DNA from: Candidatus Omnitrophota bacterium
Lineage (GTDB): Bacteria > Omnitrophota > Gorgyraeia > Gygaellales > Profunditerraquicolaceae
Assembly: GCA_050012075.1 (NCBI GenBank)
Contig: JBEKHW010000001.1
Location: forward strand, 68,766-132,765
Reading direction: 5' to 3'
Length of the DNA: 64,000 bases
In this document: piece after piece, positions 2,179 through 29,175 of the stretch
Numbering within the stretch: position 1 is the stretch's first letter
How the letters are laid out: every line of letters starts with the position of its first letter
Notes under the pieces: generated by a model
The model's input: the letters and a program-made list of their open reading frames with translations, nothing else
What the model was told of the DNA's origin: nothing
Databases searched by the model: none
Translations under genes and position numbers: made by a program

Positions 2179-2217
2179 AAAAAAATAAAAGACGCCTCCA
2201 TAGTACCTAGACGTCTT
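2179..2217 (-). terminator. Weak terminator candidate after atpC
   Basis: Minus strand: short GC stem (aagacg...cgtctt) followed by ttatttttttg. Confidence 0.3.
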
Positions 2218-2354
2218 TGTCCGTTACTCTACTGTATTTTGCCCTGCCTTGCTTCTTCGCAAGACCTTAAAGACAAATGATAATATAAAAATTTTTCTTG
2301 TCAAGGGAAATCTACCCTAAAGTTCCGACAGGAACAGAATTTTCTGATAAGTCT

Positions 2355-17164: not shown

Positions 17165-18670
17165 TTAAATGTCAAAATAAAGATAAAACTCATAGGGATG
17201 CGGACGCATTCTTACCGCATCTATTTCCTTTTTGCGTTTGTATTCAATCCAGATGTCAATCACATCTTTGGTGAATACTCCGCCCTGAAGGAGATAATCA
17301 TGGTCTGCTTCCAGCGCATCAATTGCCCGGCGTAGCGAAGAGGGAACCGTAGCAATCTTGTTCATCTCTTCTTCGCTTAATTCAAACAAATCAACATCAA
17401 CGGGCTCTCCCGGGTCAATCTTATGTTTTATACCGTCTAAACCGGCAAGAAGCATCGCGCTAAACGCAAGGTAAGGATTACAAGCCGGGTCAGGCGGACG
17501 GAACTCAATCCTCTTTGCCTTAGGGTTATCTGTATACATGGGAATCCTTACTGCTGCCGAACGGTTGCGCGCGGAATAAACCAGGTTCACCGGCGCCTCG
17601 TAACCCGGAACCAATCTTTTATAAGAGTTGGTCGTGGGAGCGCAGAAAGCCATTAAGCTATTCGCGTGCTTAAGGAGCCCGCCAATATAATACTTTGCGG
17701 TCTGGGATAGAAGCGCATAACCATTCTTATCATAAAAAAGGTTTACGCCGTTCTTCCATAAACTCTGATGGCAATGCATACCGGAGCCATTATCAGCAAA
17801 CAATGGCTTTGGCATAAAGGTTGCCACCATCCCTGCTTTCCTGGACATATTCTTGATGATATACTTATACATAAGCAGGTTATCCGCCATCTTGGTGAGC
17901 TTATCAAACTTCATATCGATTTCGCACTGTCCTGCGGTAGCTACCTCATGATGGTGCACTTCTACATTGATACCGGCTTCCTTCATCTTCAAAATAATCC
18001 TGCTCCTTAAATCCTGGATAGAATCATGCGGGGGAACCGGGAAATAACCTTCCTTGAAACGGATTTTATAACCAAGGTTTGGATTTTCCATGCGGCCAGT
18101 ATTCCAATCCGCTTCCTGAGAATCAATAAAATAATAACCTGAATTCTCCGTCTGGTCAAAGCGGATATCATTAAAGATGAAAAACTCTGCCTCTGGCCCG
18201 AAATAAATGCTGTCGGCAATACCGGAATCCTTGACATATTTCTCCGCCTTTTTAGCAATATAACGTGGGTCACGGCTGTAGGGTTTACGCGTAATCGGGT
18301 CGTAAATATCGCAGAGCAGGCTTAGAGTAGGGACTTCGCAGCACGGGTCAATAACAGCAGTTAAAGGATCGGGTATGAGAATCATATCCGATTCCTGTAT
18401 TTTCTGGAACCCCCTTATGGAAGAGCCGTCAAAACCGATACCATCCACCCAGATCGAACGCACAATATCATCCATCTCCAGTAATTCTGTCGCGGGGATG
18501 GAAAAATGCTGCCATAGGCCAGGCAGGTCATTGAATTTCAGGTCTATTATCTGGATATTGTTATCCTTGACCATCTTCAGAACATCACGCGCGGCTTTCT
18601 CGTCAAAAGAGCCGTTTACCAATGGATTCATGGTCTTTACCCCCTTGGATTCTTTTGTCTTCTTAGGCAT
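17165..18670 (-). CDS. glnA: Glutamine synthetase type I
   Basis: 501 aa, GS-I fold throughout. Confidence 0.9.
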
Positions 18671-18704
18671 ATCTTTCTCCTCTCTATTTTTTGTCCGAAA
18701 AGAT

Positions 18705-18763
18705 TAAAAAAGCGTTCACCAAAAAAGCCACAACTTTCAGCTCTTTAATGAACGCCTGCGTTC
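18705..18763 (-). terminator. Terminator-like attenuator in the glnA leader with a competing upstream hairpin
   Basis: Minus strand: gaacgc-ag-gcgttca ... tgaacgc + tttttt, 35 nt before the glnA ATG. Confidence 0.5.
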
Positions 18764-18865
18764 TATTTTTATTAGCTGCTTAATTAAGCACCGCTATGTG
18801 CCTAAACTTTGCCTTATTTATACAAGTAAAAAAGCGCCTATCCTGGTAACAGTTTTTTTACCCCG

Positions 18866-21049
18866 TTACTTTATAAATAGCATCTCCCTATACTTTGGTA
18901 AATCCCAATGCTCATCCGAAACAACGCACTCCAGGGCATCACAATGCCTCCTGATATGCTCCATCAGCGGCTTTAGTTCTTTAAAGTATATGGTTGCTTT
19001 TTTGTCTTGATCCATACCCCTGGTTCTCTCCAGCAGACTGATTAACTCTTTAGTGTTCCTGCGCACGTAATAAATCTTGCTGGAAATATCCTTTAAGTGC
19101 TCCCTCTGGTCATTAATCACCGCGGGCGCAATTTTAGCTTTCTTTGAAAGCAGTATCAACCTCTCCAGGTTAGACGCGACCATCTGCTGATACTCAAACC
19201 CCGCCGGGACGATACTGGCGTTAACCATTTCATTAAGGGTATTTGCCTCTATCTCAATAGTCAGGTTATACATATGCATCCAGATATGGTAGCGGGCGAC
19301 GATTTCCTCTTTTGAGAAAACTTTATATTTTTCAAAAAGGGAGATATTTTTCTCCCTGGTCAAGGCCAAAAGGGATTCGGCGGTAGAGGCGATATTAGGA
19401 AGTTTTCTTTTCTTTGCCTCGGAAAGCCAGGCCGAAGCATAATTGTTGCCTTCGAAACGTATATCTTTTGTCTCCTTAAAAATCTTTGCGATCACGCGCA
19501 TGACCTTAGTGTTAAAATCTTTTCCTTTCTCCTTGCGGATTTCTGTAGCCACATAATCAAGGCTTTCCGCGATAATAGTGTTAAGAATGGCTATAGGTGT
19601 TGAGATATTCTGCGAAGAACCCACGGCGCGGAACTCAAATTTTGCGCCTGTAAAGGCAAACGGCGAAGTGCGATTCCTGTCAGTCGTATCTTTATTGAAC
19701 CGCGGCAATCTTGCCAGGCCCAAGTCTATTACATCCTTCTTGGAAACGTTTGATTTTATGCCTTTACCTATCATCTCCACGATTTTAGTCAACTGCTCTC
19801 CAAGAAAAATACTGATAATGGCCGGCGGCGCCTCATTTGCGCCTAAGCGGTGTTCATTTCCTGCCATAGCTACCGATGCGCGCAGGAGGTCCGCATGCAG
19901 GTAAACTGCCCTTAACACTGCTGCCAGGAATGCCAGAAACTGCAGATTATCCTCAGGGGTATCCCCGGGGTTAAGCAGATTGTTACCTAAATTATCTGCC
20001 AAAGACCAGTTCAGGTGCTTACCGCTGCCATTAATGCCGGCAAAGGGTTTTTCGTGTAAAAGGCAGACCAGGTTATGGCGAAGGGCGACTTTTTTCATCG
20101 TCTCCATCAAAAGCTGGTTATGGTCTGCGGCGATATTGGACTCTTCAAAAATAGGCGCGAACTCATACTGGTGCGGAGCAACTTCATTGTGCCTGGTCAT
20201 AACCGGTATTCCCAGTTTATACGCCTCCTCTGCCACCTCAAACATAAAATTAATCATCCGTTCTGTGATAGTGCCTAAATACTGGTCTTCGAGCTGCTGG
20301 CCCTTGGGAGAAGAAGCGCCCACCAGGGTGCGGCCCGTCATTACCAGATCCTGCCGCAGATTATAGTAGTTCTTATCAATCAGAAAATATTCCTGCTCCG
20401 GACCGCAGGTTGAATAAACCTTTAATACATCCTTGTGGCCAAAAAGTTTCAATAAACCTACCGCTGCCTTATTCAATGCTTCGTCGGAACGAAGAAGCGG
20501 TAATTTCTTATCCAGCGCTTCCCCGTGATAAGATATGAATATGGTCGGGATACAAAGAGTTTTACCCAGCGCGCTCTCGCTGATAAAGGCGGGGCTGGAA
20601 GGATCCCACGCAGTGTATCCGCGCGCTTCAAATGTTGCGCGTATTCCTCCGGAAGGAAAGCTGGAAGCATCGGGCTCTCCCTGAATAAGTTTTGAACCGG
20701 AAAATTTTTCAATGACTTTCCCCGGTCCGACAATAGAGATAAAACTATCGTGTTTCTCTGCGGTAAGGCCGGTCATCGGCTGAAACCAGTGGGTATAGTA
20801 GGTTGCGCCCTTTGAGGTAGCCCAATCCTTCATCGCATCGGCAATCTCATTTGCCTGCGTAAGAGTTATGGTTTTTCCTTCATTCAGCCAATCCTTAAAT
20901 GCCTTAAAAGTAGGCCTGGAAATGTGTTTCTGCATAGTTTCTATGCTAAAAGTATTCTCACCGAAATAGGTAGATACCTTTTTAGGTATTTTCACCTTTT
21001 CTAAACTTACTCCCTTAATCCTGAATAATGTATCTTGCCTGATTCCCAT
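18866..21049 (-). CDS. glnN: Glutamine synthetase type III
   Basis: 727 aa, the size of GS-III. GS catalytic motifs are present. Confidence 0.8.
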   Translation of the reverse strand: MGIRQDTLFRIKGVSLEKVKIPKKVSTYFGENTFSIETMQKHISRPTFKAFKDWLNEGKTITLTQANEIADAMKDWATSKGATYYTHWFQPMTGLTAEKHDSFISIVGPGKVIEKFSGSKLIQGEPDASSFPSGGIRATFEARGYTAWDPSSPAFISESALGKTLCIPTIFISYHGEALDKKLPLLRSDEALNKAAVGLLKLFGHKDVLKVYSTCGPEQEYFLIDKNYYNLRQDLVMTGRTLVGASSPKGQQLEDQYLGTITERMINFMFEVAEEAYKLGIPVMTRHNEVAPHQYEFAPIFEESNIAADHNQLLMETMKKVALRHNLVCLLHEKPFAGINGSGKHLNWSLADNLGNNLLNPGDTPEDNLQFLAFLAAVLRAVYLHADLLRASVAMAGNEHRLGANEAPPAIISIFLGEQLTKIVEMIGKGIKSNVSKKDVIDLGLARLPRFNKDTTDRNRTSPFAFTGAKFEFRAVGSSQNISTPIAILNTIIAESLDYVATEIRKEKGKDFNTKVMRVIAKIFKETKDIRFEGNNYASAWLSEAKKRKLPNIASTAESLLALTREKNISLFEKYKVFSKEEIVARYHIWMHMYNLTIEIEANTLNEMVNASIVPAGFEYQQMVASNLERLILLSKKAKIAPAVINDQREHLKDISSKIYYVRRNTKELISLLERTRGMDQDKKATIYFKELKPLMEHIRRHCDALECVVSDEHWDLPKYREMLFIK

Positions 21050-21099
21050 CTTGCCCTCCTAATTAATAATCTATTTTTTAATACCTTATTCTATCATAC

Positions 21100-21142
21100 A
21101 AAATCAAAAAATAAAGGCGTTCTTTTACAAAAAAACGCCTTT
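21100..21142 (-). terminator. Rho-independent terminator after glnK copy 1
   Basis: Minus strand: aaaggcgtttttttgtaaaagaacgccttt followed by a T-run. Confidence 0.6.
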
Positions 21143-21187
21143 ATTTCGGGAACCTTCCCGGGCTGAAACAGAAGTATCCCTGATTAA

Positions 21188-21529
21188 TTAGCCTATTGCA
21201 ACAGACCCCTTCTCTTCAGTCCTGATCCTGATACATTCTTTTAAATCAAGAACGAATATTTTTCCGTCTCCGGTCTCTCCTGTCTTTGCGCCCTTGATGA
21301 TTGCTGCTATGGTCGGCTCGACAAAATTCTCGTTTACCGCAATCTCAAGGCGGATTTTCCTTAAGAGATTACCTGTCTCCTTGTGGCCGCGGTAAACTTC
21401 GGTAACCCCTTTCTGCCGGCCATGGCCGAGAACTTCGCTTACGGTAATAAGATTTACCTCTGCCTTGTAAAGTTCTTCTTTTACATCTTCGAGTTTATGC
21501 GGCTGGATTATCGCAATGATTAATTTCAT
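21188..21529 (-). CDS. glnK: P-II nitrogen regulatory protein (copy 1)
   Basis: 113 aa. Begins [21 protein letters not shown]-loop region is RGHKETG. Adjacent to amt. Confidence 0.9.
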
Positions 21530-21549
21530 ATTAGCCCCCTTTTATCATG

Positions 21550-21577
21550 GTGACTTTGTGACCTGTGACTTTGTGAC
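21550..21577. repeat. GTGACTTTGTGAC-ct-GTGACTTTGTGAC element between amt and glnK (copy 1)
   Basis: Lies in the 52-nt amt-glnK spacer, directly upstream of the glnK ribosome-binding site. Confidence 0.8.
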
Positions 21578-21581
21578 ATCT

Positions 21582-22868
21582 TTATTCAAGTACCGTATAC
21601 GCCCTCTCCCTGTGCTGCGTAAGATCAAGCCCCATGGCTTCTTCTTTTTCGCTGACGCGTATCCTGAAAAATATATCCACAAATTTATATATAATATAGG
21701 TAACAACAAAGGTGTAAGCTACCGCTGCTACAACCCCGATTAACTGTATCAAAAACTGCCGGGGATTACCGGCAAATAAACCATTTGCCCCTGCGGCATT
21801 TATTGCTTTGGAGGCAAATAACCCTGTAGCCAGAGTTCCCAGGATTCCTCCTAAACCATGCACCCCAAAAGCGTCCAGGGAATCATCATAACCGAACTTG
21901 GGCTTGATAACGGCGACCCCGATAAAACACAAGATGCTTGCAAAGACCCCTATTATTAACGCTGAGGAAGGACTAATAAAACCCGAGGCAGGAGTAACCG
22001 TAGCCAGGCCTGCGATAGAACCGGTGACAGCGCCAAACATTGTGGGTTTTCCGTTACGGACCCATTCCAGAAGCGCCCAGGTCAACCCTGCTGCCGCTGC
22101 CGCTGCGTTAGTCGCCACAAATGCACTGACTGCTAGGCCATTTGCCGCTAAAGCGCTACCGGCATTAAAACCAAACCAACCAAACCATAGTAAAGCTGTT
22201 CCCAAGGCTACGAAAGGAAGGTTGTGCGGGACAGGAGTATTGTGCTCCAGGTTCTTTCTTTTGCCGATAGCCAGGGCTACAACTAAAGCAGCAATACCTG
22301 CGCTCGTATGCACTACAATTCCTCCTGCAAAATCAAGGACACCTAAATTCCTTAACCAGCCACCCATTCCCCAAACCCAGTGGCAAAGCGGGTCATAGAC
22401 AAAAGTAGCCCATAGAATGCTAAAAACCAGAAACGCCGAAAATTTCATCCTTTCCGCAAAAGCACCAATAATTAATGCCGGTGTGATTATCGCAAACATC
22501 GCCTGAAAAATCATGAATGCCTGATGAGGGATAGTAGCGCTGTAGCCGCTAAAAGGCTCAATGCCGACCCCATTTAAACCAAACCAACTCAGGCCTCCCC
22601 AGAAACCTTTGCTCGGAGCAAAAGAAAGGCTGTAACCAAAAAGCATCCAATGTACTGTCAATAAACATAATATCACAAAACACTGCATTAGGATACTTAG
22701 GATATTCTTCCTTCTGACCATGCCTCCATAGAAAAATGCCAACCCCGGAGTCATCAACATCACAAAGGCCGTAGAGATTAAAACAAACGCCGTGTCTGCC
22801 CCATTAATCATATTGCCTCCTTCACAGCAGTGAACACTTGCCTCGATAAAACAAGGTGTTCCTTGCAC
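21582..22868 (-). CDS. amt: Ammonium transporter (copy 1)
   Basis: 428 aa, 11-TM Amt/MEP family. C-terminus is EAMGLDLTQHRERAY. Confidence 0.9.
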   Translation of the reverse strand: MQGTPCFIEASVHCCEGGNMINGADTAFVLISTAFVMLMTPGLAFFYGGMVRRKNILSILMQCFVILCLLTVHWMLFGYSLSFAPSKGFWGGLSWFGLNGVGIEPFSGYSATIPHQAFMIFQAMFAIITPALIIGAFAERMKFSAFLVFSILWATFVYDPLCHWVWGMGGWLRNLGVLDFAGGIVVHTSAGIAALVVALAIGKRKNLEHNTPVPHNLPFVALGTALLWFGWFGFNAGSALAANGLAVSAFVATNAAAAAAGLTWALLEWVRNGKPTMFGAVTGSIAGLATVTPASGFISPSSALIIGVFASILCFIGVAVIKPKFGYDDSLDAFGVHGLGGILGTLATGLFASKAINAAGANGLFAGNPRQFLIQLIGVVAAVAYTFVVTYIIYKFVDIFFRIRVSEKEEAMGLDLTQHRERAYTVLE

Positions 22869-22895
22869 AATTGGTTAAACAACTGTGTAAAAACA

Positions 22896-22949
22896 GTTTA
22901 AAAAATAAAGGCGTTCATAACAGTTTGGTCGTAACTATCATGAACGCCT
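22896..22949 (-). terminator. Terminator/attenuator between glnK copy 2 and amt copy 1
   Basis: Minus strand: aggcgttcat-N21-atgaacgcct, then ttatttttt. Confidence 0.6.
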
Positions 22950-23055
22950 AATTGCGCTATCTCATTATAAACACTGCAACGTGCTTATAGCTAGTTACCT
23001 ATACAAGTAATAAACTCGATATTTTGGTAATCCGAATATTTGACTGCTTAAAGAT

Positions 23056-23397
23056 TTACCCAATCGCCAGCGAACCGCGCTCCTCGGTCCTGATTCTTAT
23101 GCACTCCTTTAAATCCAGGACAAAGATCTTGCCATCCCCGGTCTCTCCTGTCTTTGCGCCTTTTATTATGGCTTTTATGGTCGGCTCGACAAAATTATCG
23201 TTTACAGCGATTTCAAGGCGAACCTTTCTAAGCAGATTTCCCGTCTCTTTCGCCCCGCGGTAAACCTCAGTAACACCCTTTTGCCGGCCATGGCCTAGGA
23301 CCTCACTTACGGTAATAAGATTTACCTCTGCCTTATAAAGCTCTTCTTTTACATCTTCGAGTTTATGCGGCTGGATTATCGCAATGATTAATTTCAT
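23056..23397 (-). CDS. glnK: P-II nitrogen regulatory protein (copy 2)
   Basis: 113 aa. Differs from copy 1 at only a few residues; the 5' DNA is identical. Confidence 0.9.
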
Positions 23398-23417
23398 ATT
23401 AGCCCCCTTTTATCATG

Positions 23418-23430
23418 GTGACTTTGTGAC
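23418..23430. repeat. Single GTGACTTTGTGAC unit between amt and glnK (copy 2)
   Basis: Same position as in copy 1, but a single unit. Confidence 0.75.
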
Positions 23431-23434
23431 ATCT

Positions 23435-24718
23435 TTATTCAAGTACAGTATACGCCCTCTCTCTATGCTGCGTAAGGTCAAGTCCCATGGCTTCTTCTTT
23501 TTCGTTGACGCGTATGCCGATAAATACATCCACCAGTTTATAGATTATAGCTGTTACTGCCAGAGAGTAAATTAGCGTGACCGCCACGGCAGTTAACTGC
23601 ACCAGGAATTGCTTTGGGTTGCCAAAGAAAAGCCCGTCTCCACCCGCAGCATTTACGCTCTTCGAAGCAAAAAGCCCGGTAGCTAATGCGCCCCATATAC
23701 CGCCTACACAGTGCACGCCAAATGCGTCCAGGGAATCGTCATAACCGAACTTGGGCTTGATAATACTGACGGCAGTAAAACAGAAGACACTTACCAGCAA
23801 TCCTATAATAATCGCCGGAATTACGCTCACAAACCCGGCTGCGGGAGTGATGGCTACGAGGCCCGCTACTGCTCCTGAAGCTGCGCCGAAAATGGTAGGT
23901 TTGCCGTTACGAATCCATTCAATTATTGCCCAGCTTAACCCGGCGCTAGCTGCTGCGGTATTGGTAACCACAAAAGCATTCACTGCCAGGCCATTTGCCG
24001 CTAAAGCACTGCCGGCATTAAAACCAAACCAGCCAAACCAGAGAAGACCTGTGCCCAAGATTACAAAAGGCATATTGTGCGGTGCAGGAACATCTTTTTC
24101 TATATTCCTCCTCTTGCCGATAAATAATGCTGTTACCAACGCAGCAATACCCGCATTTATGTGTACTACGGTGCCGCCGGCAAAATCAAGAGCGCCCATC
24201 TGTCTTAAGAACCCGCCGACCCCCCAGACCCAGTGACAAACAGGGTCATATACAAATGTCGCCCACAGGAGCACAAAAGCAACAAATGCGGAAAACTTCA
24301 TTCTCTCTGCAAATGCACCCAGTATTAATGCCGGTGTGATTATCGCAAACATCGCCTGAAAAATCATAAATGCCTGATGCGGGATTGTACCTGCGTAATC
24401 CGCATACGGCCCAAAACCTACTCCCTTTAACCCAAGCCAGCCAAAGCCGCCCCAAAATCCAGTCGAAGGCGCAAAAGAAAGGCTATAGCCATATAAAACC
24501 CACTGCACACTTATGACACACATTATTATGAAACACTGCATAAGTATGCTTAGGATGTTCTTCTTCCTGACCATGCCGCCATAGAAGAATGCCAGCCCCG
24601 GGGTCATCAGCATAACCAGGGCCGAAGAAATCAAAACCCATGCCGTATCACCTGCATTAATCATTTCTACCCTCCCTTGCCCACAAAGGGCACACTTGCG
24701 CAATACCGATAAGCGCAA
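23435..24718 (-). CDS. amt: Ammonium transporter (copy 2)
   Basis: 427 aa. Paralog of 21582..22868. Confidence 0.9.
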   Translation of the reverse strand: MRLSVLRKCALCGQGRVEMINAGDTAWVLISSALVMLMTPGLAFFYGGMVRKKNILSILMQCFIIMCVISVQWVLYGYSLSFAPSTGFWGGFGWLGLKGVGFGPYADYAGTIPHQAFMIFQAMFAIITPALILGAFAERMKFSAFVAFVLLWATFVYDPVCHWVWGVGGFLRQMGALDFAGGTVVHINAGIAALVTALFIGKRRNIEKDVPAPHNMPFVILGTGLLWFGWFGFNAGSALAANGLAVNAFVVTNTAAASAGLSWAIIEWIRNGKPTIFGAASGAVAGLVAITPAAGFVSVIPAIIIGLLVSVFCFTAVSIIKPKFGYDDSLDAFGVHCVGGIWGALATGLFASKSVNAAGGDGLFFGNPKQFLVQLTAVAVTLIYSLAVTAIIYKLVDVFIGIRVNEKEEAMGLDLTQHRERAYTVLE

Positions 24719-24720
24719 GG
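24681..24720. repeat. Inverted copy of the ATCGG-loop hairpin plus a ccc/ggg mini-hairpin immediately upstream of amt copy 2
   Basis: cccacaaagggcacacttgcgcaataccgataagcgcaaggtgt is the reverse complement of 25741-25785 with a few changes. Confidence 0.6.
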
Positions 24721-24724
24721 TGTA

Positions 24725-24904
24725 TTAATTAATCCCTAGTTTCTCCCTGACTAACTTCGCGTAAACTTTGTTTATACGTTTGGTCTTCAACCATCTCTCT
24801 ATGGTAGTAACCTGAATATCAAGCTTCTTGGATAAATCGTAAAGGGTATAGCTTCTTTCTTCTTTTAAGATTAAAAGTCTTCTAATCAATTCTAGGTCTA
24901 CCAT
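24725..24904 (-). CDS. Unannotated 59-aa helix-turn-helix protein (excisionase/AlpA-like or sigma-region-4-like small DNA binder)
   Basis: My own translation is MVDLELIRRLLILKEERSYTLYDLSKKLDIQVTTIERWLKTKRINKVYAKLVREKLGIN. Its start overlaps the stop of the upstream OMP gene as TAATG. It is absent from the ORF track because it is shorter than 60 aa. Confidence 0.45.
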   Translation of the reverse strand: MVDLELIRRLLILKEERSYTLYDLSKKLDIQVTTIERWLKTKRINKVYAKLVREKLGIN

Positions 24905-25722
24905 TAGAAATCCAGATCCAATTGAAAGGTTATCGTATCTTTCGCATTAGGATTATTATAGATGTCGTAAGCAATGATAGCGGAAACATTGCTGGTGAAT
25001 TTCCAGGAGAAACCGAAGTTAAGCGCTCCGTATGAAGACTGGGTTCCCTGATAATCAGCGCATATCCACAACCTGTCTGATATCTCGGTCATCACCCTTT
25101 CCCAGGCAATCATAGGGCCGGCATTATCACGCTCGCCGTTTTTATCACGCAATAACCTGGCGCTGCCGTTGAAATAGCCGGCTGAGAAACGGCCCAGGCT
25201 AAGCTTACCTATATATAAGCTCTTTGCAACCCTGAGATACCAGATATTATTACCGGTAACGTCGTGTTTTGTGCCGATATCATAACCGCCTATGGCAAAA
25301 GCAGGCATAAACTTAAAATAAGCATCCTCGGGAACTCCGAATTTAAAATGAAAATACCATGGATAGGTGTCGGCTGCGGGGCCAAACCCTTTTTTATAGT
25401 CAAAACCGGTTTCCGCCATGATTTTTCCTAAAGGAGACCATAACTTGCCTAAAAGGTTATTTTCGGGCTTATCAGAAAGAAGGCTGAAGGTCGGTCCGTA
25501 AACCTGCTGGACATAAAGTTGGTTATCATTATGGTCCCTGCTTTTAACAGGAGTATAATTATCCACATTTAAATGTATCTTTCCGTAAGGTTGAATATCG
25601 GTTGAGGGAGTCCAGATAAGAGTAGTAGGCGTAGCAAAAGCAATATTTGCGCATATGCTAAAAATACAAAAAATTCCCGTCAAAATCAGGCAGTTCTTAA
25701 ACAGGCGTGTTTCTAGTTGCAT
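24904..25722 (-). CDS. Outer-membrane beta-barrel (porin-like) protein
   Basis: 272 aa. Signal peptide, alternating beta-strand pattern, and a C-terminal ...LDLDF ending in Phe. Confidence 0.5.
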   Translation of the reverse strand: MQLETRLFKNCLILTGIFCIFSICANIAFATPTTLIWTPSTDIQPYGKIHLNVDNYTPVKSRDHNDNQLYVQQVYGPTFSLLSDKPENNLLGKLWSPLGKIMAETGFDYKKGFGPAADTYPWYFHFKFGVPEDAYFKFMPAFAIGGYDIGTKHDVTGNNIWYLRVAKSLYIGKLSLGRFSAGYFNGSARLLRDKNGERDNAGPMIAWERVMTEISDRLWICADYQGTQSSYGALNFGFSWKFTSNVSAIIAYDIYNNPNAKDTITFQLDLDF

Positions 25723-25740
25723 TATCTCCTCTTCGTCTTA

Positions 25741-25924
25741 CACCTTGCGCTTATCGGTATTGCGCAAGTGTTCCCTCGTGGGAAAAATAAGGCGCCTTAC
25801 TAAATCCATCCCTTGGATTAATAAGACGCCTGCGTCTTAATAACTGTTTAAACACCCCAACATATCGGAATGTTGGGTGTGCCCTTACTGGGCTAACACC
25901 CGGCCATAGCGGATTGGCCGGTGT
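25741..25924. repeat. Array of three related hairpins (acacc-stem-loop containing ATCGG/AGCGG-stem-ggtgt) in the leader region of the OMP gene
   Basis: Hairpins at 25741-25772, 25855-25885 and 25896-25924. Stems differ with compensatory changes; loops are conserved. Confidence 0.6.
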
Positions 25925-25936
25925 GCCCTTTGTGGG

Positions 25937-25967
25937 CAAAAAAAGACGTTCTTCTTTAAGAACGTCT
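25937..25967 (-). terminator. Rho-independent terminator after the sigma-factor gene
   Basis: Minus strand: agacgttcttaaagaagaacgtct + ttttttt. Confidence 0.65.
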
Positions 25968-26031
25968 ATGTACCACTTCGCGACAATGCGCTTTCACTAC
26001 TACAAGTAAAGAACTTACTGCTTTGGTAACC

Positions 26032-26553
26032 TCAATCCAAATATTTTCTGCACTTTTCTCGTATCTCTTTCGTCAATTTCACTACCCGCACATGAGATAT
26101 AGATAAGCGGCTGCCGATTTCCCTGGTAGTAAGGCCTTCGGCGTAGAAACGTAAAATCTGTTTTTCCCTGGTAGTAAGGCCGTTATTCAGGATGGTTTCG
26201 GCGACCAGCCTATCATCAAGCTTGCGCAGGTAGCTAGCGTGACCGCCTTCTTCCGACTCCAATATATCGCTCAATTTTAAATCAATTTCCGGGTTAACAA
26301 ACTCATCCAAACTTACAGTGTTCCTGCGAATTTTCTGCAGCCGGATATAATTCTTCATATGGAAATAGCACCCCTGCAAAATATAGCTGTCTGTTTTATC
26401 GGATAATTTACCGCTATTATGATCCTGCCAAAGGCGGACCAGGGCTTCCTGATAAAGGTCGTCAGCGTTAAAAAAGGTAAAATTACCCTTAATCCGGTAA
26501 GTTATCCTTTTTAAGGTAGGGGATATTTTCTTTACTAACTCTTCAAATTGCAT
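26032..26553 (-). CDS. Sigma-70 family (ECF-like) RNA polymerase sigma factor
   Basis: Region-2-like DDLYQEALVRLW and a region-4 HTH (LTTREKQILRFYAEGLTTREIG). The ORF-track start at 26640 is probably an upstream extension; the internal Met (MQFEEL...) is the likelier start. Confidence 0.6.
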   Translation of the reverse strand: MQFEELVKKISPTLKRITYRIKGNFTFFNADDLYQEALVRLWQDHNSGKLSDKTDSYILQGCYFHMKNYIRLQKIRRNTVSLDEFVNPEIDLKLSDILESEEGGHASYLRKLDDRLVAETILNNGLTTREKQILRFYAEGLTTREIGSRLSISHVRVVKLTKEIREKCRKYLD

Positions 26554-26703
26554 TTTGACTCCTATAAAATACGAAAGCGTCCGCACCCCTGTCTTCGGGG
26601 ATTTCGGACGCCTTAGTCCCTGTCCGCCTACGGCGGACAAAAAAAATGCCTTCCCTAGCCAACATCGCTAAAGAAGACATCCTTGTCTTTCACTTACACT
26701 TTA

Positions 26704-26731
26704 AGTATACCCCAAAAATCTGGCTTGTCAA
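26704..26731 (-). promoter_or_regulatory. Near-consensus sigma-70 promoter (TTGACA-N16-TATACT) for the sigma-factor gene
   Basis: The minus strand reads ttgacaagccagatttttggggtatact, 150-180 nt upstream of the proposed start. Confidence 0.5.
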
Positions 26732-26739
26732 GCTCAATC

Positions 26740-28419
26740 TTAAACTTTATATCTATTGGTTATGGGCATCCTGCGGTCACGGCCGAATGCCTTGGGCGTT
26801 ATTTTTATGCCCGGAGGGGATTGTCTGCGTTTATATTCGCTTCCGTCAACCATGCGCAGGACCTTTGCTACTGTTTCTTTATCAAATCCGGAAGCGACGA
26901 TCTTCTCTAATTCTTCATCTTCTTCTACATAGGCCTTTAAAATGGGGTCTAGCGTCTCATATATAGGTAAGGTATCCGCATCTTTCTGATTCGGCCGTAG
27001 TTCTGCGGTAGGCGGGCGGATTAAGACATTCTCAGGGATAACGGTACCCAAAGAATTCCTGTAACGGGCTAATTCATATACGAGCATTTTGGGAACGTCT
27101 TTTATTACCGCAAGGCCTCCTGCCATATCTCCGTAAAGCGTGGCATAACCTGTGCTCATCTCTGATTTATTGCCGGTGGTTAGAACCAGCCACCCGAATT
27201 TATTGGAGAATGCCATCAGCATATTGCCCCTTATGCGCGCCTGGATATTCTCTTCTGTAATATTCCTCTCTAAGGCAGCAAAATGCGGCTCAAGGACAAC
27301 CAGGTACATATTGTAAATCTGCTCAATTGAGATAACAATGAATTTTATTCCCAGGTTCTCTGCGAGTCCCCTGGCGCCTGTCAGGGATTCTTGTGAAGAA
27401 TGGCGCGTAGGCATGAATAAGCCGGTGACATTTTCTTTTCCCAGGGCATCGACTGCCAATGTAGCTACCAGGGAAGAATCTATGCCTCCGCTTAAGCCTA
27501 TAACAACTTTCTGAAAACCGTTTTTCCTGACGTAGTCGCTCAAGCCCAAAACCAGGGCTTGATAAATTTCAACAACCGTTTCTAAAACCCTCACCTCTTT
27601 TTTCTGAATCTTCGTTTTTTCTACCGGATAGAATTTATCCGTAATTATAACAGCGCCATTGGGCTTACGATTAATCTCTGGCATCTCTATATCCGTAACT
27701 AACAGCTCCTCTTTAAACGCCTCTGCCCTGTTGATTATCGAACCGCGGCTATTTACCACCATGCTCTGTCCGTCAAAAACCAGTTCATCCTGGCCGCCGA
27801 TTAAATTAGCGTAAGCGATTGCCACTTTATTTGCCTTTGCCTGCTTGCGAATGATACCCTCCCTCTCTTTTATCCTGCCGGCATAATATGGAGAGGCGTT
27901 TATATTTAGGACAAGTTTTGCCCCGGACTTTGCCTGTGTTCTTGTCGGTCCGCATTCATGCCAGATATCCTCGCAGATATTTACGGCAAAACAAAATCCA
28001 CCCAGTTTAAATAAAAGAGGTTTATCCCCCTCCTCAAAATAGCGTTTTTCATCAAAAACCCCATAATTCGGTAAAAACATCTTGTGATATATGCCGCAGA
28101 TCCTAGTATTATAAATTACGGCAGCCGCATTATACAGGTATATACCCTTCTTATTAACGAAACCTGCCACCGCCACAATATTGTTAACGCAAAGAGATAA
28201 CTCCTTTAAAGCCCTTAGATTATCTTCAATAAATTTTGGCTTATGCAATAAATCTTCGGGAGGGTATCCGGGAATTGCAAGTTCCGGGAAACAGATTATA
28301 TCTACGCCTAGTTCCTTTGCCCTGTTAATATGCTGGATAATCTTACGGCTATTGCCTTCCAGATCACCGACAGTAGAGTTTATCTGCGCAAGGGCTATTC
28401 GTAAATTAGATTTTTTCAC
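26740..28419 (-). CDS. nadE: Glutamine-dependent NAD+ synthetase
   Basis: 559 aa. N-terminal nitrilase/CN-hydrolase domain plus a C-terminal PP-loop (GLSGGIDSS). Confidence 0.9.
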   Translation of the reverse strand: MKKSNLRIALAQINSTVGDLEGNSRKIIQHINRAKELGVDIICFPELAIPGYPPEDLLHKPKFIEDNLRALKELSLCVNNIVAVAGFVNKKGIYLYNAAAVIYNTRICGIYHKMFLPNYGVFDEKRYFEEGDKPLLFKLGGFCFAVNICEDIWHECGPTRTQAKSGAKLVLNINASPYYAGRIKEREGIIRKQAKANKVAIAYANLIGGQDELVFDGQSMVVNSRGSIINRAEAFKEELLVTDIEMPEINRKPNGAVIITDKFYPVEKTKIQKKEVRVLETVVEIYQALVLGLSDYVRKNGFQKVVIGLSGGIDSSLVATLAVDALGKENVTGLFMPTRHSSQESLTGARGLAENLGIKFIVISIEQIYNMYLVVLEPHFAALERNITEENIQARIRGNMLMAFSNKFGWLVLTTGNKSEMSTGYATLYGDMAGGLAVIKDVPKMLVYELARYRNSLGTVIPENVLIRPPTAELRPNQKDADTLPIYETLDPILKAYVEEDEELEKIVASGFDKETVAKVLRMVDGSEYKRRQSPPGIKITPKAFGRDRRMPITNRYKV

Positions 28420-28425
28420 GGGTTT

Positions 28426-29175
28426 TTAAGATTTTTTGGCTTTTATATCTTTGGCCAGGATTATCGCTTCGGCAATCTCGCGCATGGATTTACGCGTATC
28501 CATACTTTGTTTCTGGATAAGCCGATATGCCTCGGAAGGAAGAATATTTGCTTCCTGGGATAATATATCCTTTGCCCGTTCTACAAGCTTACGGGTAGTC
28601 AATGCCTCTTCGGCGCTGCGCGCCCTCAAATCAAGCTCCGCGTTCTCAATGGCAATTGCCGCCTGGTTAGCCAGGGCAGTAAGGACATCTATTTCATGCT
28701 TGGAGAATTTATGTTTTTTGGAAGTATAGCAGTTAAGGACCCCGATTACCCTTCCTTTTACTGACATAGGGACACTGGCCAGCGAGCATAGCCCTTCTTT
28801 TTTGGCGATATCCTGGTTAAGGTAACGGCTATCACCCTTAACATCCTCTACTACAATCGGCCTATTCTCTTTTGCTACGATCCCCGCGATCCCGACCCCC
28901 ATCTTTATATTCGGCTTCTTATTGTATGCCTCTGAGATTGACTGCGTGGCCTTTACCACTAATTCCTGTTTATCCGGGTCAAGCAGTAGGAGGGAGGATA
29001 TTTTGGAATTCATCACTTCCGCGGTAACCTGCACAACCAGGCGCAGGAGTTCCTCCAGGTACAGGCCGCTGGTGATAAGGTTGGCTATCTTGGAAAGCGC
29101 TTCTATCTGTTTTACATAAAGGTCGTAATGTTCTTTCTTCTTCTGAACCATGTTATCTGCCCCTGCTGTTGACAA
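28426..29175 (-). CDS. GAF-ANTAR domain regulator (putative RNA-binding antiterminator)
   Basis: 249 aa. Central GAF-like region. The C-terminal ANTAR-like helix is TTRKLVERAKDILSQEANILPSEAYRLIQKQSMDTRKSMREIAEAIILAK. Confidence 0.65.
   Translation of the reverse strand: MSTAGADNMVQKKKEHYDLYVKQIEALSKIANLITSGLYLEELLRLVVQVTAEVMNSKISSLLLLDPDKQELVVKATQSISEAYNKKPNIKMGVGIAGIVAKENRPIVVEDVKGDSRYLNQDIAKKEGLCSLASVPMSVKGRVIGVLNCYTSKKHKFSKHEIDVLTALANQAAIAIENAELDLRARSAEEALTTRKLVERAKDILSQEANILPSEAYRLIQKQSMDTRKSMREIAEAIILAKDIKAKKS

Follow-up and report, generated by a model that had tools for sequence, protein, structure and literature searches.

ANTAR-domain proteins that act by antitermination bind a defined type of leader RNA. 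The published target consists of two hairpins, P1 and P2, whose hexanucleotide loops have A as the first and G as the fourth base (A1/G4), and P2 has a distal stem that overlaps the proximal stem of a terminator (PMC3369936, PMC8934654, PMC3369931). The nasF leader requires both A1 and G4 in its P1 loop (PMC3369936). EutV tolerates neither shortening of the 5-12 nt linker between the hairpins to 3 nt nor its extension, whether to 14 nt or by 20 nt, and loses activity in each case (PMC8934654, PMC3369931). An ANTAR nitrogen regulon of 13 attenuators in six transcription units has been predicted in Desulfotomaculum acetoxidans (Ramesh et al. 2012). No characterised member of the GAF-ANTAR architecture is described in PMC3369931, PMC7496416, or PMC12591593.

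Here, we analysed the leader of a glutamine synthetase gene (glnA) in a 64-kb stretch of an Omnitrophota genome (hereafter, the window). To our knowledge, nothing is known about the control of nitrogen assimilation in the uncultured, often ultra-small Omnitrophota. The glnA leader matches the layout of Ramesh et al. 2012, with dual hexaloops, G4 in both loops, a P2 3' half that overlaps the terminator, and an ANTAR protein encoded in the same genome. At loop position 1, P1 has A and P2 has G. The two hairpins are 24 nt apart, outside the 5-12 nt spacing of eut leaders, a constraint that was measured for EutV only. ANTAR antitermination before glnA is thus a new and well-supported case of an established mechanism, and we put at about 0.75 the probability that this leader is a protein-dependent ANTAR-type transcription attenuator, with the product of a neighbouring GAF-ANTAR gene as its most likely regulator.

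Direct reading of the minus strand gives the order GAACGC-ag-GCGTTCA-(30 nt)-TGAACGC-U6, 35 nt ahead of the glnA ATG (Table 1), as reported in a first-pass annotation of this DNA. The 6-bp anti-terminator around a 2-nt loop 'ag' proposed there cannot form (infinite energy in ViennaRNA), and the hairpin at this place is P2, with a 4-bp stem and a hexaloop. The idea of mutually exclusive hairpins sharing the GCGTTC arm was borne out: the terminator opens within the loop of P2, and its 5' arm uses P2 loop positions 4-6 and the entire P2 3' arm. The P2 hexaloop, GCAGGC, has G at position 4 and G instead of A at position 1. If this G1 pairs with C6, the loop shrinks to a tetraloop; the two alternative structures have energies of -1.6 kcal/mol (4 bp plus hexaloop) and -3.4 kcal/mol (5 bp plus tetraloop; ViennaRNA). 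The 5-bp core of P1 (GGCAC/GUGCU) has -5.3 kcal/mol, and its stem is extendable to 8 bp (18805-18784). For the 130-nt leader, RNAfold gives -34.2 kcal/mol (z = -3.4, equalled by 0 of 200 shuffles), with the terminator in the minimum-free-energy (MFE) structure, and the leader MFE is -28.6 kcal/mol with the terminator versus -20.9 kcal/mol when P1 and P2 are enforced. Since P2 is ~17-18 kcal/mol weaker than the terminator, the two hairpins do not compete unaided; termination is the default, and a protein must hold P2 for read-through to occur. The suggestion that glnA expression depends on read-through of a leader terminator thus agrees with the structural tests, and also with the comparative tests described below.

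In the proposed mechanism, the nascent glnA leader RNA would fold P1 first, as a stable hexaloop hairpin, followed by P2, a weak 4-bp hexaloop hairpin, and the sequence GGCGUUC (P2 loop positions 4-6 and 3' arm) would double as the start of the terminator 5' arm. Without protein, the terminator (-20 kcal/mol) is predicted to displace P2 (-1.6 to -3.4 kcal/mol), and polymerase would halt at U6, 35 nt 5' of the glnA start. When the regulator is active, ANTAR domains would grip the hexaloops so that P2 stays closed and GGCGUUC is kept from the terminator, with read-through into glnA. The G4 contact is modelled on EutV and would have a flipped-out G4 stacked on a conserved tyrosine. The most likely regulator is the presumably dimeric GAF-ANTAR protein (29151-28426), with the GAF domain as the probable route of activation, via a metabolite that reflects nitrogen status, and expression would presumably be on under nitrogen limitation.

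Mutually exclusive hairpins are also typical of riboswitches and of ribosome-mediated attenuators, and cyanobacterial glnA leaders bear glutamine riboswitches. A switch that responds to a metabolite such as glutamine, or to the ribosome, without a dedicated RNA-binding protein is nevertheless extremely unlikely here, given the weakness of the anti-terminator relative to the terminator (~17-18 kcal/mol). Moreover, what is conserved amounts to a pair of 4-bp hairpins that build no multi-helix pocket, and Rfam, including its glutamine riboswitch, has no match at gathering score in the 64 kb and nothing relevant at E <= 5 in 18600-26800. A leader peptide is contradicted by the absence of AUG between 18820 and 18706, where the GUG and UUG frames have at most 5 codons and no ribosome-binding site.

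Table 1 Features of the glnA leader and of related elements in the 64-kb window. P1, P2, and anti-terminator denote predicted RNA elements.
Feature	Coordinates	Strand	Details
glnA, type I glutamine synthetase, regulated gene	17165..18670	-	Pfam Gln-synt_C 461 bits, Gln-synt_N 97 bits
Upstream box GTTACC, -35-like, of bipartite promoter-like motif	18845..18850	-	Read directly
Downstream box TACTTGTA, -10-like, 19 nt 5' of P1	18821..18828	-	Kept in ~35 glnA leaders
P1 hairpin GCAC-AUAGCG-GUGC, hexaloop A1/G4	18788..18801	-	In RNAfold minimum-free-energy structure
P1-P2 linker, 24 nt	18764..18787	-	UUAAGCA at 18783-18777 is the local form of the glnA-leader motif AAUUAGGCA (alignment A1)
P2 hairpin GAAC-GCAGGC-GUUC, 4-bp stem and hexaloop, anti-terminator	18750..18763	-	Same element in ~35 loci
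GAACGC arm	18763-18758	-	Read directly
'ag' between arms	18757-18756	-	Read directly
GCGTTCA arm	18755-18749	-	Read directly
30-nt spacer	18748-18719	-	Read directly
TGAACGC arm	18718-18712	-	Read directly
Intrinsic terminator stem-loop	18711..18757	-	5' arm opens at P2 loop position 3-4; -20.1 kcal/mol alone
U6 tract (TTTTTT) of terminator, 35 nt 5' of ATG	18706..18711	-	Read directly
Last 35 nt before ATG	18705-18671	-	GGAG ribosome-binding site at 18680-18677; ATG at 18670
Attenuator before ORF 1949-309 (Glu_synthase domain)	2189..2304	-	Promoter TTGACA-16-TATCAT 2304-2277
ORF 1949-309 attenuator parts		-	P1 UUGC-GAAGAA-GCAA 2262-2249; P2 GGAC-AAAGAC-GUCU 2222-2209; terminator 2217-2189
glnK1-glnN intergenic attenuator	21108..21160	-	P1 CGGG-AAGGUU-CCCG 21160-21147; P2 AAAU-AAAGGC-GUUU 21146-21133
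glnK1-glnN terminator	21147-21108	-	18 pairs, GGCGTT/AACGCC arms and U-run
amt1 leader	22909..23031	-	ATTACC-N16-TACTTGTA 23031-23002; P1 GCAC-GUUGCA-GUGU 22984-22971
amt1 leader P2 AGCGC-AAUUAG-GCGUU, atypical, without G4	22958-22943	-	Model R1 and fold
amt1 leader terminator	22949-22909	-	17 pairs, GGCGTT/AACGCC arms and U-run
ORF272/amt2 leader, two tandem attenuators	25790..26030	-	GTTACC-N16-TACTTGTA at 26030-26001
ORF272/amt2 attenuator 1		-	P1 CGC-AUUGUC-GCG 25990-25979; P2 GUAC-AUAGAC-GUUC 25973-25960; terminator 1 25967-25944
ORF272/amt2 attenuator 2		-	Second P2 AGAC-GCAGGC-GUCU 25837-25824; terminator 2 25831-25790
ECF-type sigma factor gene, 173 aa, start revised to ATG 26553	26032..26553	-	NCBIfam TIGR02937 61.5 bits vs cut-off 42.9
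ECF-type sigma gene leader	26574..26731	-	Sigma-70-type promoter TTGACA-16-TATACT 26731-26704
Sigma leader attenuator 1		-	P2 AGAC-AAGGAU-GUCU 26688-26675; terminator 26680-26646
Sigma leader attenuator 2		-	P2 GGAC-UAAGGC-GUCC 26619-26606; terminator 26614-26574
GAF-ANTAR one-component regulator, 241 aa, candidate antiterminator	28426..29151	-	Pfam GAF_2 86.5 bits, ANTAR 61.9 bits

The same switch recurs in dozens of related uncultured Omnitrophota genomes, and about 35 Omnitrophota glnA leaders have in common the promoter motif, P1, P2, the terminator, and the ribosome-binding site. To search related loci, we used a covariance model (R1) that comprises only P1, the linker, and P2, and holds no terminator information. 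At E <= 1 there are 69 matches in 1.1 Mb, all but one on the gene strand, located ahead of glnA, amt, glnK-like genes, gltB, ORF272, sigma, and the GAF-ANTAR gene itself. A terminator begins inside P2 in 65 of the 68 gene-strand matches, starting 4-10 nt, in most cases 6-7 nt, upstream of the 3' end of P2. In the window, the glnA leader is matched by the covariance model with E = 1e-13, far from anything expected at random, and the amt1 leader by R1 with 15.1 bits (E = 0.014). Hexaloops are present in 58 (P1) and 65 (P2) of the 69 matches; position 4 is G in every one of them (58/58 and 65/65), while position 1 is A in 45 of the P1 and 57 of the P2 hexaloops and G in seven of the latter. The linker measures 15-31 nt in related glnA leaders and 0-6 nt in most amt/ORF272 leaders.

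Base pairing is preserved in 99.4% of the stem cells of related leaders, and 18 cells have double-sided stem changes compared to 5.9 +/- 1.8 in shuffled alignments (0/500 shuffles as high). The outer pair of P1 covaries (GC 36, GU 18, AU 12), with stem variants that include ACAC/GUGU, AUAC/GUAU, GUAC/GUAU, and GGACAC/GUGUCC, all of which keep the pairing. Covariation of the terminator is also found where it overlaps P2, at loop positions 5 (G-C 50, A-U 7) and 6 (C-G 55, U-A 5). A structure-only scan, which is anchored on P2 and uses no sequence model, gave 138 hits on the gene strand versus 59 on the opposite strand for P2(G4) plus terminator, 70 versus 11 when P1 was added, and 35 versus 0 when A1/G4 was present in both loops. 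The G4 hexaloops, conservation, covariation, and terminator overlap together support ANTAR control, as the first-pass annotation had proposed.

The P1 sequence (AGGCAC-N-GTGC) could instead act at the DNA level, as a sigma-54 -24/-12 promoter or as an operator made of repeated TTAGGCA, with no RNA hairpin involved. GGCAC...TGC resembles TGGCAC-N5-TTGC, and TTAGGCA occurs twice in glnA leaders, ~22 bp apart. We regard this as the least probable of the explanations considered, since GG and GC are 11 rather than 10 nt apart, and related P1 stems keep their pairing yet lose the GG and GC dinucleotides. With the wrong spacing and covarying pairs, a sigma-54 promoter at AGGCAC...GTGC was rejected. 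As for the operator, the second TTAGGCA is wholly absent from four glnA leaders (alignment A1), and the element is always 3' of the bipartite promoter motif.

This motif, GTTACC-N16-TACTTGTA, spans 18850-18821 in the glnA leader. About 65 mismatch-free copies of GTTACC-N16-TACTT[G/A]TA are present in related loci, where 72 of 77 copies of the bipartite motif have the orientation of the gene, and 71 of 82 have a 16-nt spacer. The exact 9-mer TTACTTGTA has three copies in the window, each 5' of a leader terminator, and its distance to P1 falls into two classes of ~19 and ~27 nt. Its reading as the -35 or extended -10 box of a sigma-70 promoter was rejected for the inconsistent spacing to any -10-like sequence; given the fixed 16-nt gap to the upstream GTTACC, a two-box promoter fits better. 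Transcription of glnA most likely starts a few nucleotides 3' of GTTACC-N16-TACTTGTA. The earlier picture of the leader was right about an antitermination switch and missed both P1 (18801-18788) and this upstream motif, two features with which the element qualifies as a canonical dual-hexaloop ANTAR target within a true 5' leader.

The position of the motif also bears on whether the terminators are simply constitutive, serving as operon boundaries or insulators (the glnA-proximal one would end glnN), with incidental hairpins and nitrogen control exerted only at the specialised promoter. Every hairpin is a bona fide intrinsic terminator, two of them come after genes (glnN and glnK1), and the dedicated upstream motif could carry the regulation. 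However, this motif sits between the upstream gene and the terminator, and a constitutive terminator would therefore stop that promoter's own transcripts. In many relatives the gap of ~10-35 nt between terminator and start codon is taken up by the U-tract and the ribosome-binding site, leaving no room for a further promoter. Constitutive termination also gives no reason why P1 and P2 have an invariant G4, covary, and are biased in strand, and is very unlikely.

ANTAR-type attenuators precede at least eight leaders in the window, those of glnA and at least seven other nitrogen-gene leaders; Pfam matches there include glnA, two amt and two glnK genes, and the GAF+ANTAR protein. Two further terminators noted in the first pass, one in the leader of amt copy 1 and one with GGCGTT/AACGCC arms after glnK copy 1, are real, and the device proved to be repeated in the leaders of amt1, ORF272/amt2, glnN, sigma, and a glutamate-synthase-like gene (Table 1). 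The glnK1-glnN attenuator has A1/G4 in both loops (structure-only scan). The tandem ORF272/amt2 attenuators, with R1 scores of 7.9 and 11.8 bits, have counterparts of the same layout in L002, L008, L012, L015, L020, L032, and L059, and the layout of the sigma leader is also present ahead of sigma homologues in 10 loci.

ORF272 has no family in Pfam or NCBIfam, and its region (25776-24687) is flanked by 38-nt inverted repeats. Insertion of this region as a mobile element was rejected, as at least nine loci have a homologue at the equivalent position, preceded by the same attenuators.

The GAF-ANTAR protein of the window is identical to P0001 (241 aa). Its ANTAR domain (residues 188-239; 61.9 bits versus a cut-off of 27.3, Pfam PF03861) aligns to Rv1626, EutV, and NasR. 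In a phmmer alignment to 6wsh, the EutV RNA-contact residues R142, K143, K149, Y164, M172, and R175 are identical in GAF-ANTAR and E146 is also kept, with substitutions at K147 (to R), E160 (P), R168 (Q), N173 (D), and R177 (S). This is the sole ANTAR gene in the 64-kb window and across all 80 related loci, the protein is highly conserved, with over 120 clusters at >=82% identity, its gene is in kept synteny with regulated genes in at least 10 attenuator-bearing loci, and in L020 and L022 it lies behind the same attenuator itself. It is therefore a plausible partner of the glnA leader, as first suggested, although one GAF-ANTAR-bearing clade (L030, L031, L033, L035, L036, and L051) has no detectable attenuator.

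Local co-occurrence within +/-10 kb is weak. Among loci of at least 12 kb, 10 have both GAF-ANTAR and attenuators, 18 attenuators only, 6 GAF-ANTAR only, and 17 neither. The 18 and 6 loci are consistent with an attenuator of ANTAR or similar protein-dependent type that is served in trans by a factor other than the GAF-ANTAR protein nearby. The rest of the genome, outside the 64-kb window, could encode a second ANTAR protein for this role, for example a receiver-ANTAR protein like Geobacter GnfR, which controls the same kinds of genes, or the factor could be an unrelated RNA-binding protein that reads the repeated UAGGC; the linker motif AAUUAGGCA is not explained by the known ANTAR contacts, which are confined to the loop and closing base pairs. 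The exclusive presence of GAF-ANTAR as an ANTAR gene in these loci, its synteny, its own attenuators in L020 and L022, and its conservation with G4-binding residues kept all argue against a different factor, which we consider unlikely.

The ECF-type sigma factor gene is present in 15 of 29 motif-bearing loci and in none of 22 motif-less loci (loci of at least 12 kb), and its product is a candidate factor for the GTTACC-N16-TACTTGTA promoters. We tentatively suggest, as a possibility with less than even odds, a previously undescribed two-layer nitrogen circuit in which sigma and GAF-ANTAR form a coherent feed-forward (AND) loop. In such a circuit, the sigma gene would be read from its ordinary sigma-70 promoter and gated by two tandem ANTAR attenuators, sigma would recognise GTTACC-N16-TACTTGTA ahead of glnA, amt, ORF272, glnK, and gltB, and each sigma-driven transcript would also need release by the same GAF-ANTAR protein. 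Its single GAF domain, related to the GAFs of NifA and PtsP (EI-Ntr), may sense 2-oxoglutarate or glutamine, for example. If true, this circuit would replace NtrBC/sigma-54, GlnR, or NtcA as the master control of nitrogen, both in Omnitrophota and in some neighbouring lineages.

The comparative evidence points to ANTAR antitermination as the probable main nitrogen-control device of Omnitrophota. The clear and numerous RNA targets provide a defined candidate protein-RNA pair for finding the ligand of the GAF-ANTAR sensor, and the long conserved linker of glnA leaders calls into question the strict rule on spacing that was drawn from EutV. The possible sigma-plus-ANTAR cascade adds some interest.

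Among known systems, NasR/nasF of Klebsiella oxytoca and AmiR/amiE of Pseudomonas aeruginosa likewise rely on phosphorylation-independent ANTAR antiterminators that act at leader terminators of nitrogen-related operons, and NasR is also a one-component protein. They differ in that NasR senses nitrate by a NIT domain and AmiR is under the amide-binding protein AmiC, and in that each controls a single operon, while the attenuators described here form a regulon. In Geobacter sulfurreducens, the ANTAR protein of the GnfK/GnfR system relieves leader terminators of nitrogen genes including glnK and amtB, and there are also two layers of control, specialised initiation and antitermination, according to the available text of Ueki and Lovley 2010 (PMC2995071). 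The conserved Geobacter RNA site given in that text, CAGGCAANGGCGCC, resembles the AGGCA and AGGCG elements found here (PMC2995071). As described there, however, GnfR belongs to the receiver-ANTAR response regulators and comes with a kinase, initiation depends on RpoN and GnfL/GnfM rather than on a candidate sigma-70-family ECF-type factor, and glnA is not among the leader-terminator targets listed in the available text (nifH, nifEN, nifX, glnK, as well as amtB; PMC2995071).

The EutV/EutW eut leaders of Enterococcus faecalis (PMC3369931; PMC8934654) are alike in their dual P1/P2 hexaloops with G4 and mostly A1, in the overlap of the P2 3' half with the terminator 5' arm, and in having several attenuators per gene cluster, and the ANTAR domain of EutV has the same G4-stacking tyrosine and plug methionine. 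Where EutV has a phosphorylated receiver domain, the one-component protein here has a GAF domain as its sensor; the targets are nitrogen-assimilation rather than ethanolamine genes; and the linker is 0-6 or 15-31 nt rather than 5-12 nt, with a conserved linker motif added in glnA-type leaders. The predicted ANTAR nitrogen regulons, such as that of D. acetoxidans, similarly have many dual-hairpin plus terminator elements before PII, ammonium transporter, and glutamine/glutamate synthase genes, and are known from computation alone, as is the case here. The Omnitrophota system differs from these in its phylum (PVC group) and in its type of cognate protein, and its attenuators are often in tandem and tied to a dedicated promoter motif.

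All the elements that the first-pass annotation had described in the glnA leader are present in the sequence (see table), and RNA folding places a long hairpin in the minimum-free-energy structure (RNAfold, -34.2 kcal/mol, z = -3.4). The two further terminators with GGCGTT/AACGCC arms that it reported are also real. Folding showed that its upstream stem, 6 bp around a 2-nt loop, is physically unable to form; the 5' half of that hairpin is the 5' arm of P2, a hexaloop hairpin proposed as the anti-terminator, whose 3' part is common to the terminator. A second hexaloop hairpin, P1, has a stem that can be extended to 8 bp, and RNAfold predicts it unaided. By the published definition, an RNA target of ANTAR antiterminators has two such hairpins, G being the fourth loop base (G4) and A usually the first (A1), and an intrinsic terminator whose 5' arm overlaps the 3' half of the second hairpin (PMC3369936, PMC8934654, PMC3369931). 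P1, P2, and the terminator of the glnA leader fit this definition; the P2 loop of the window's glnA leader carries G at position 1. Because P2 alone contributes -1.6 kcal/mol as a hexaloop or -3.4 kcal/mol as a tetraloop, against -20.1 kcal/mol for the terminator folded alone, and a fold forced to contain P1 and P2 lies 7.7 kcal/mol above the minimum-free-energy structure, this RNA would be expected to terminate by default, with some factor needed to hold P2.

Features of the nitrogen-assimilation cluster and its leaders in the window
Feature	Position	Strand	Remarks
Lrp/AsnC regulator, aminotransferase		minus	first in cluster order
TAGAAC x3 direct repeats	30345-30315	minus	with several GTTCG/GAAC words
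GAF-ANTAR gene	29151-28426	minus	after the aminotransferase
Glutamine-dependent NAD synthetase		minus	between GAF-ANTAR and sigma genes
Two tandem attenuators			before sigma gene; structure-only scan
ECF-type sigma factor gene	26553-26032	minus	TIGR02937, 61.5 bits
Second ORF272 attenuator			before ORF272; structure-only scan
ORF272, then 59-aa HTH ORF	25722-24904 (ORF272)	minus	after sigma gene
38-nt inverted repeat	24687-24724 / 25739-25776		97% complementary
19-nt inverted repeat	24677-24695 / 25921-25939		100% complementary
amt2-glnK2, then amt1-glnK1		minus	after 59-aa HTH ORF
GGCGTT/AACGCC-armed terminators	22949-22909; 21147-21108
glnK1-glnN attenuator			P1 CGGG-AAGGUU-CCCG, P2 AAAU-AAAGGC-GUUU; structure-only scan
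glnN		minus	type III glutamine synthetase; between amt1-glnK1 and glnA
GTTACC-N16-TACTT[G/A]TA	18850-18821; 23031-23002; 26030-26001	minus	glnA, amt1, ORF272/amt2 leaders, upstream of P1
P1	18801-18788	minus	GCAC-AUAGCG-GUGC; 24 nt upstream of P2
Linker motif AAUUAGGCA(A/G)	18783-18777		alignment A1, columns 24-32
P2	18763-18750	minus	GAAC-GCAGGC-GUUC; 4-bp stem
GAACGC-ag-GCGTTCA	18763-18749	minus	read from sequence; then 30-nt spacer
TGAACGC	18718-18712	minus	read from sequence
U6	18711-18706	minus	read from sequence
GGAG ribosome-binding site		minus	within the 35 nt between U6 and glnA ATG (18670)
glnA	18670-17165	minus	after glnN
Small Fis-type HTH ORF, then gltB, gltD		minus	after glnA
Dual-hexaloop attenuator	2304-2189	minus	before ORF 1949-309, behind TTGACA-16-TATCAT promoter; structure-only scan
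REP-like elements	25940-25850; 26637-26623; 17147-17133; 2140-1975

The window matches metagenome-assembled genomes of Candidatus Omnitrophota; its GlnA is 84-94% identical to those of about 50 loci from these genomes, and its GAF-ANTAR protein has the same sequence as P0001, encoded on an Omnitrophota contig at NCBI. Profile matches define a nitrogen-assimilation cluster on the minus strand. For comparison, the sequence upstream of glnA was taken from related loci (L001-L080). About 35 of these leaders share one order of parts: GTTACC-N16-TACTTGTA, a spacer of 9-27 nt, UAGGCAC-AUxGUA-GUGC, a linker, GAAC-AxAGGC-GUUC, a terminator with U-run, and a ribosome-binding site. We built a covariance model from 30 glnA leaders, covering P1, linker, and P2 with no terminator information. 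In the window this search, a check the first-pass annotation had proposed, scored 55.8 bits for the glnA leader and 15.1 bits (E = 0.014) for the amt1 leader, and it matched the ORF272/amt2 leader at two sites. In the 1.1 Mb of related loci it gave 69 matches at E ≤ 1, 68 of them on the glnA strand. Besides glnA, the genes that follow are amt, glnK-like genes, a Fis-like ORF with gltB, homologues of ORF272 and of the sigma gene, and, in L020 and L022, the GAF-ANTAR gene itself; no attenuator is present directly upstream of the window's aminotransferase-GAF-ANTAR operon, where TAGAAC repeats adjoin the Lrp/AsnC regulator gene.

A terminator (hairpin of ≤ -8 kcal/mol plus U-run) follows 65 of the 68 gene-strand matches, its 5' arm beginning 4-10 nt (in most cases 6-7 nt) upstream of the 3' end of P2; in two of the other three it is visible by eye. 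Loop position 4 is G in every related hexaloop (58/58 P1, 65/65 P2); A occupies position 1 in 45 of the P1 and 57 of the P2 loops. Stem cells are paired in 99.4% of cases, with 18 both-side changes versus 5.9 ± 1.8 in shuffles (0/500 as high), in an alignment that was fitted to the covariance model and is thus biased toward structure. The outer P1 pair varies (GC 36, GU 18, AU 12), and individual leaders have P1 arms such as AUAC/GUAU, GUAC/GUAU, and GGACAC/GUGUCC. The terminator covaries at the positions common with P2 (loop position 5, G-C 50 and A-U 7; position 6, C-G 55 and U-A 5). A structure-only scan of the loci for P2 (G4) plus terminator found 138 sites on the gene strand versus 59 on the other, 70 versus 11 when P1 was also required, and 35 versus 0 when both loops were A1/G4. 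Contigs labelled Elusimicrobia, Syntrophorhabdaceae, or Deltaproteobacteria (L062, L075, L076, L079) also have the promoter motif (with TACTTTTA) and attenuators before amt; this may mean either that the system is not confined to Omnitrophota or that the contigs were mis-binned.

The GTTACC-N16-TACTT[G/A]TA motif occurs about 65 times without mismatch in L001-L080, with a 16-nt spacer in 71 of 82 matches and 72 of 77 copies on the gene strand. The first recognisable gene downstream is glnA (36), ORF272 (9), amt (9), glnK-like (4), or gltB (1). Two boxes at a fixed distance suggest a promoter, so that the glnA leader would be a true 5' leader. Since the U-tract nearly touches the ribosome-binding site in many relatives, there is no space for a promoter past the terminator, in support of what the first-pass annotation had argued. 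The motif was found only before attenuated nitrogen genes and is unlike the sigma-70-type promoters preceding the sigma gene and ORF 1949-309.

The ECF-type sigma gene has conserved synteny and, in loci of at least 12 kb, is present in 15/29 with the promoter motif versus 0/22 without. In ten loci it is preceded by a canonical promoter of the TTGACA-N16/17-TATACT type and then by one or two attenuators; the window copy lies within the nitrogen cluster, has no anti-sigma gene next to it, and is preceded by a sigma-70 promoter and, in tandem, two attenuators of the ANTAR type. Its listed TTG start (26640) is probably wrong; the ATG at 26553 comes after both the second terminator and a ribosome-binding site. 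Because the gene tracks the motif and carries an attenuated sigma-70-type promoter, a feed-forward cascade is conceivable, at somewhat worse than even odds, in which ANTAR would free the sigma transcript, sigma would drive the regulon promoters, and ANTAR would free each regulon transcript.

Neither the window nor any of the loci has an ANTAR gene other than GAF-ANTAR, whose co-occurrence with attenuators within ±10 kb is loose. Its GAF domain is nearest to those of the NifA-like Aquifex Nlh1/2, NifA, and PtsP, which are nitrogen-signal sensors, making 2-oxoglutarate or glutamine reasonable guesses for the ligand. The ANTAR domain (61.9 bits) aligns with Rv1626, EutV, and NasR and keeps EutV residues R142, K143, E146, K149, Y164, M172, and R175; in EutV, Y164 stacks on G4 and M172 plugs the hexaloop (PMC8934654). 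With the upstream stem corrected, the ANTAR-antitermination interpretation as a whole is supported.

At least eight attenuators are present in the window, including the glnA, amt1, and first ORF272 terminator sites; P2 of amt1 lacks G4. The 546-aa product of ORF 1949-309 has a Glu_synthase domain, and the attenuator site of this ORF directly follows the ATP synthase operon. Between terminator and ribosome-binding site, many leaders, including those of L003, L008, L014, L022, L028, and L039, carry REP-like palindromes, for example TCCGCCGTAGGCGGA or units of the form GCCC..GGGCACACC-hairpin-GGUG. ORF272 has no family match in Pfam or NCBIfam; its homologues have signal-peptide-like N-termini, and it is a conserved regulon member, located between attenuators and amt in at least nine loci. 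The inverted repeats bracketing it and the 59-aa HTH ORF look like mobile-element ends, which the conservation of ORF272 at the same position argues against; they could form a long-range stem in the mRNA.

A sister clade (L024, L030, L031, L033, L035, L036, L041, L045, L051) has a distinct glnA leader. About 100 nt upstream of glnA it carries ATTTAACA(T) twice as a direct repeat, the copies separated by 21 nt, then GTATACTTTTGGCA, and the clade has no terminator, promoter motif, or sigma gene. In the six loci whose sequence extends far enough (L030, L031, L033, L035, L036, L051), GAF-ANTAR is present downstream of glnA-nadE, and the ATTTAACA repeats stand in place of the attenuator and motif, neither of which was found.

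EutV works only with linkers of 5-12 nt (PMC8934654, PMC3369931), whereas glnA-type linkers here span 15-31 nt. They alone contain the conserved motif AAUUAGGCA(A/G), which repeats the flank and arm on the 5' side of P1 and is similar to CAGGCAANGGCGCC, the site of Geobacter GnfR. This kind of attenuator is already known, since ANTAR attenuators were predicted in 2012 across phyla before genes for PII, ammonium transporters, and glutamine/glutamate synthases, with 13 in Desulfotomaculum acetoxidans (PMC3369931), and GnfR was shown in Geobacter to relieve termination in the leaders of nif, glnK, and amtB (PMC2995071). No characterised member with GAF-ANTAR architecture is described in PMC3369931, PMC7496416, or PMC12591593. 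The new aspects are the lineage, a one-component sensor of the GAF type, and coupling with a dedicated promoter.
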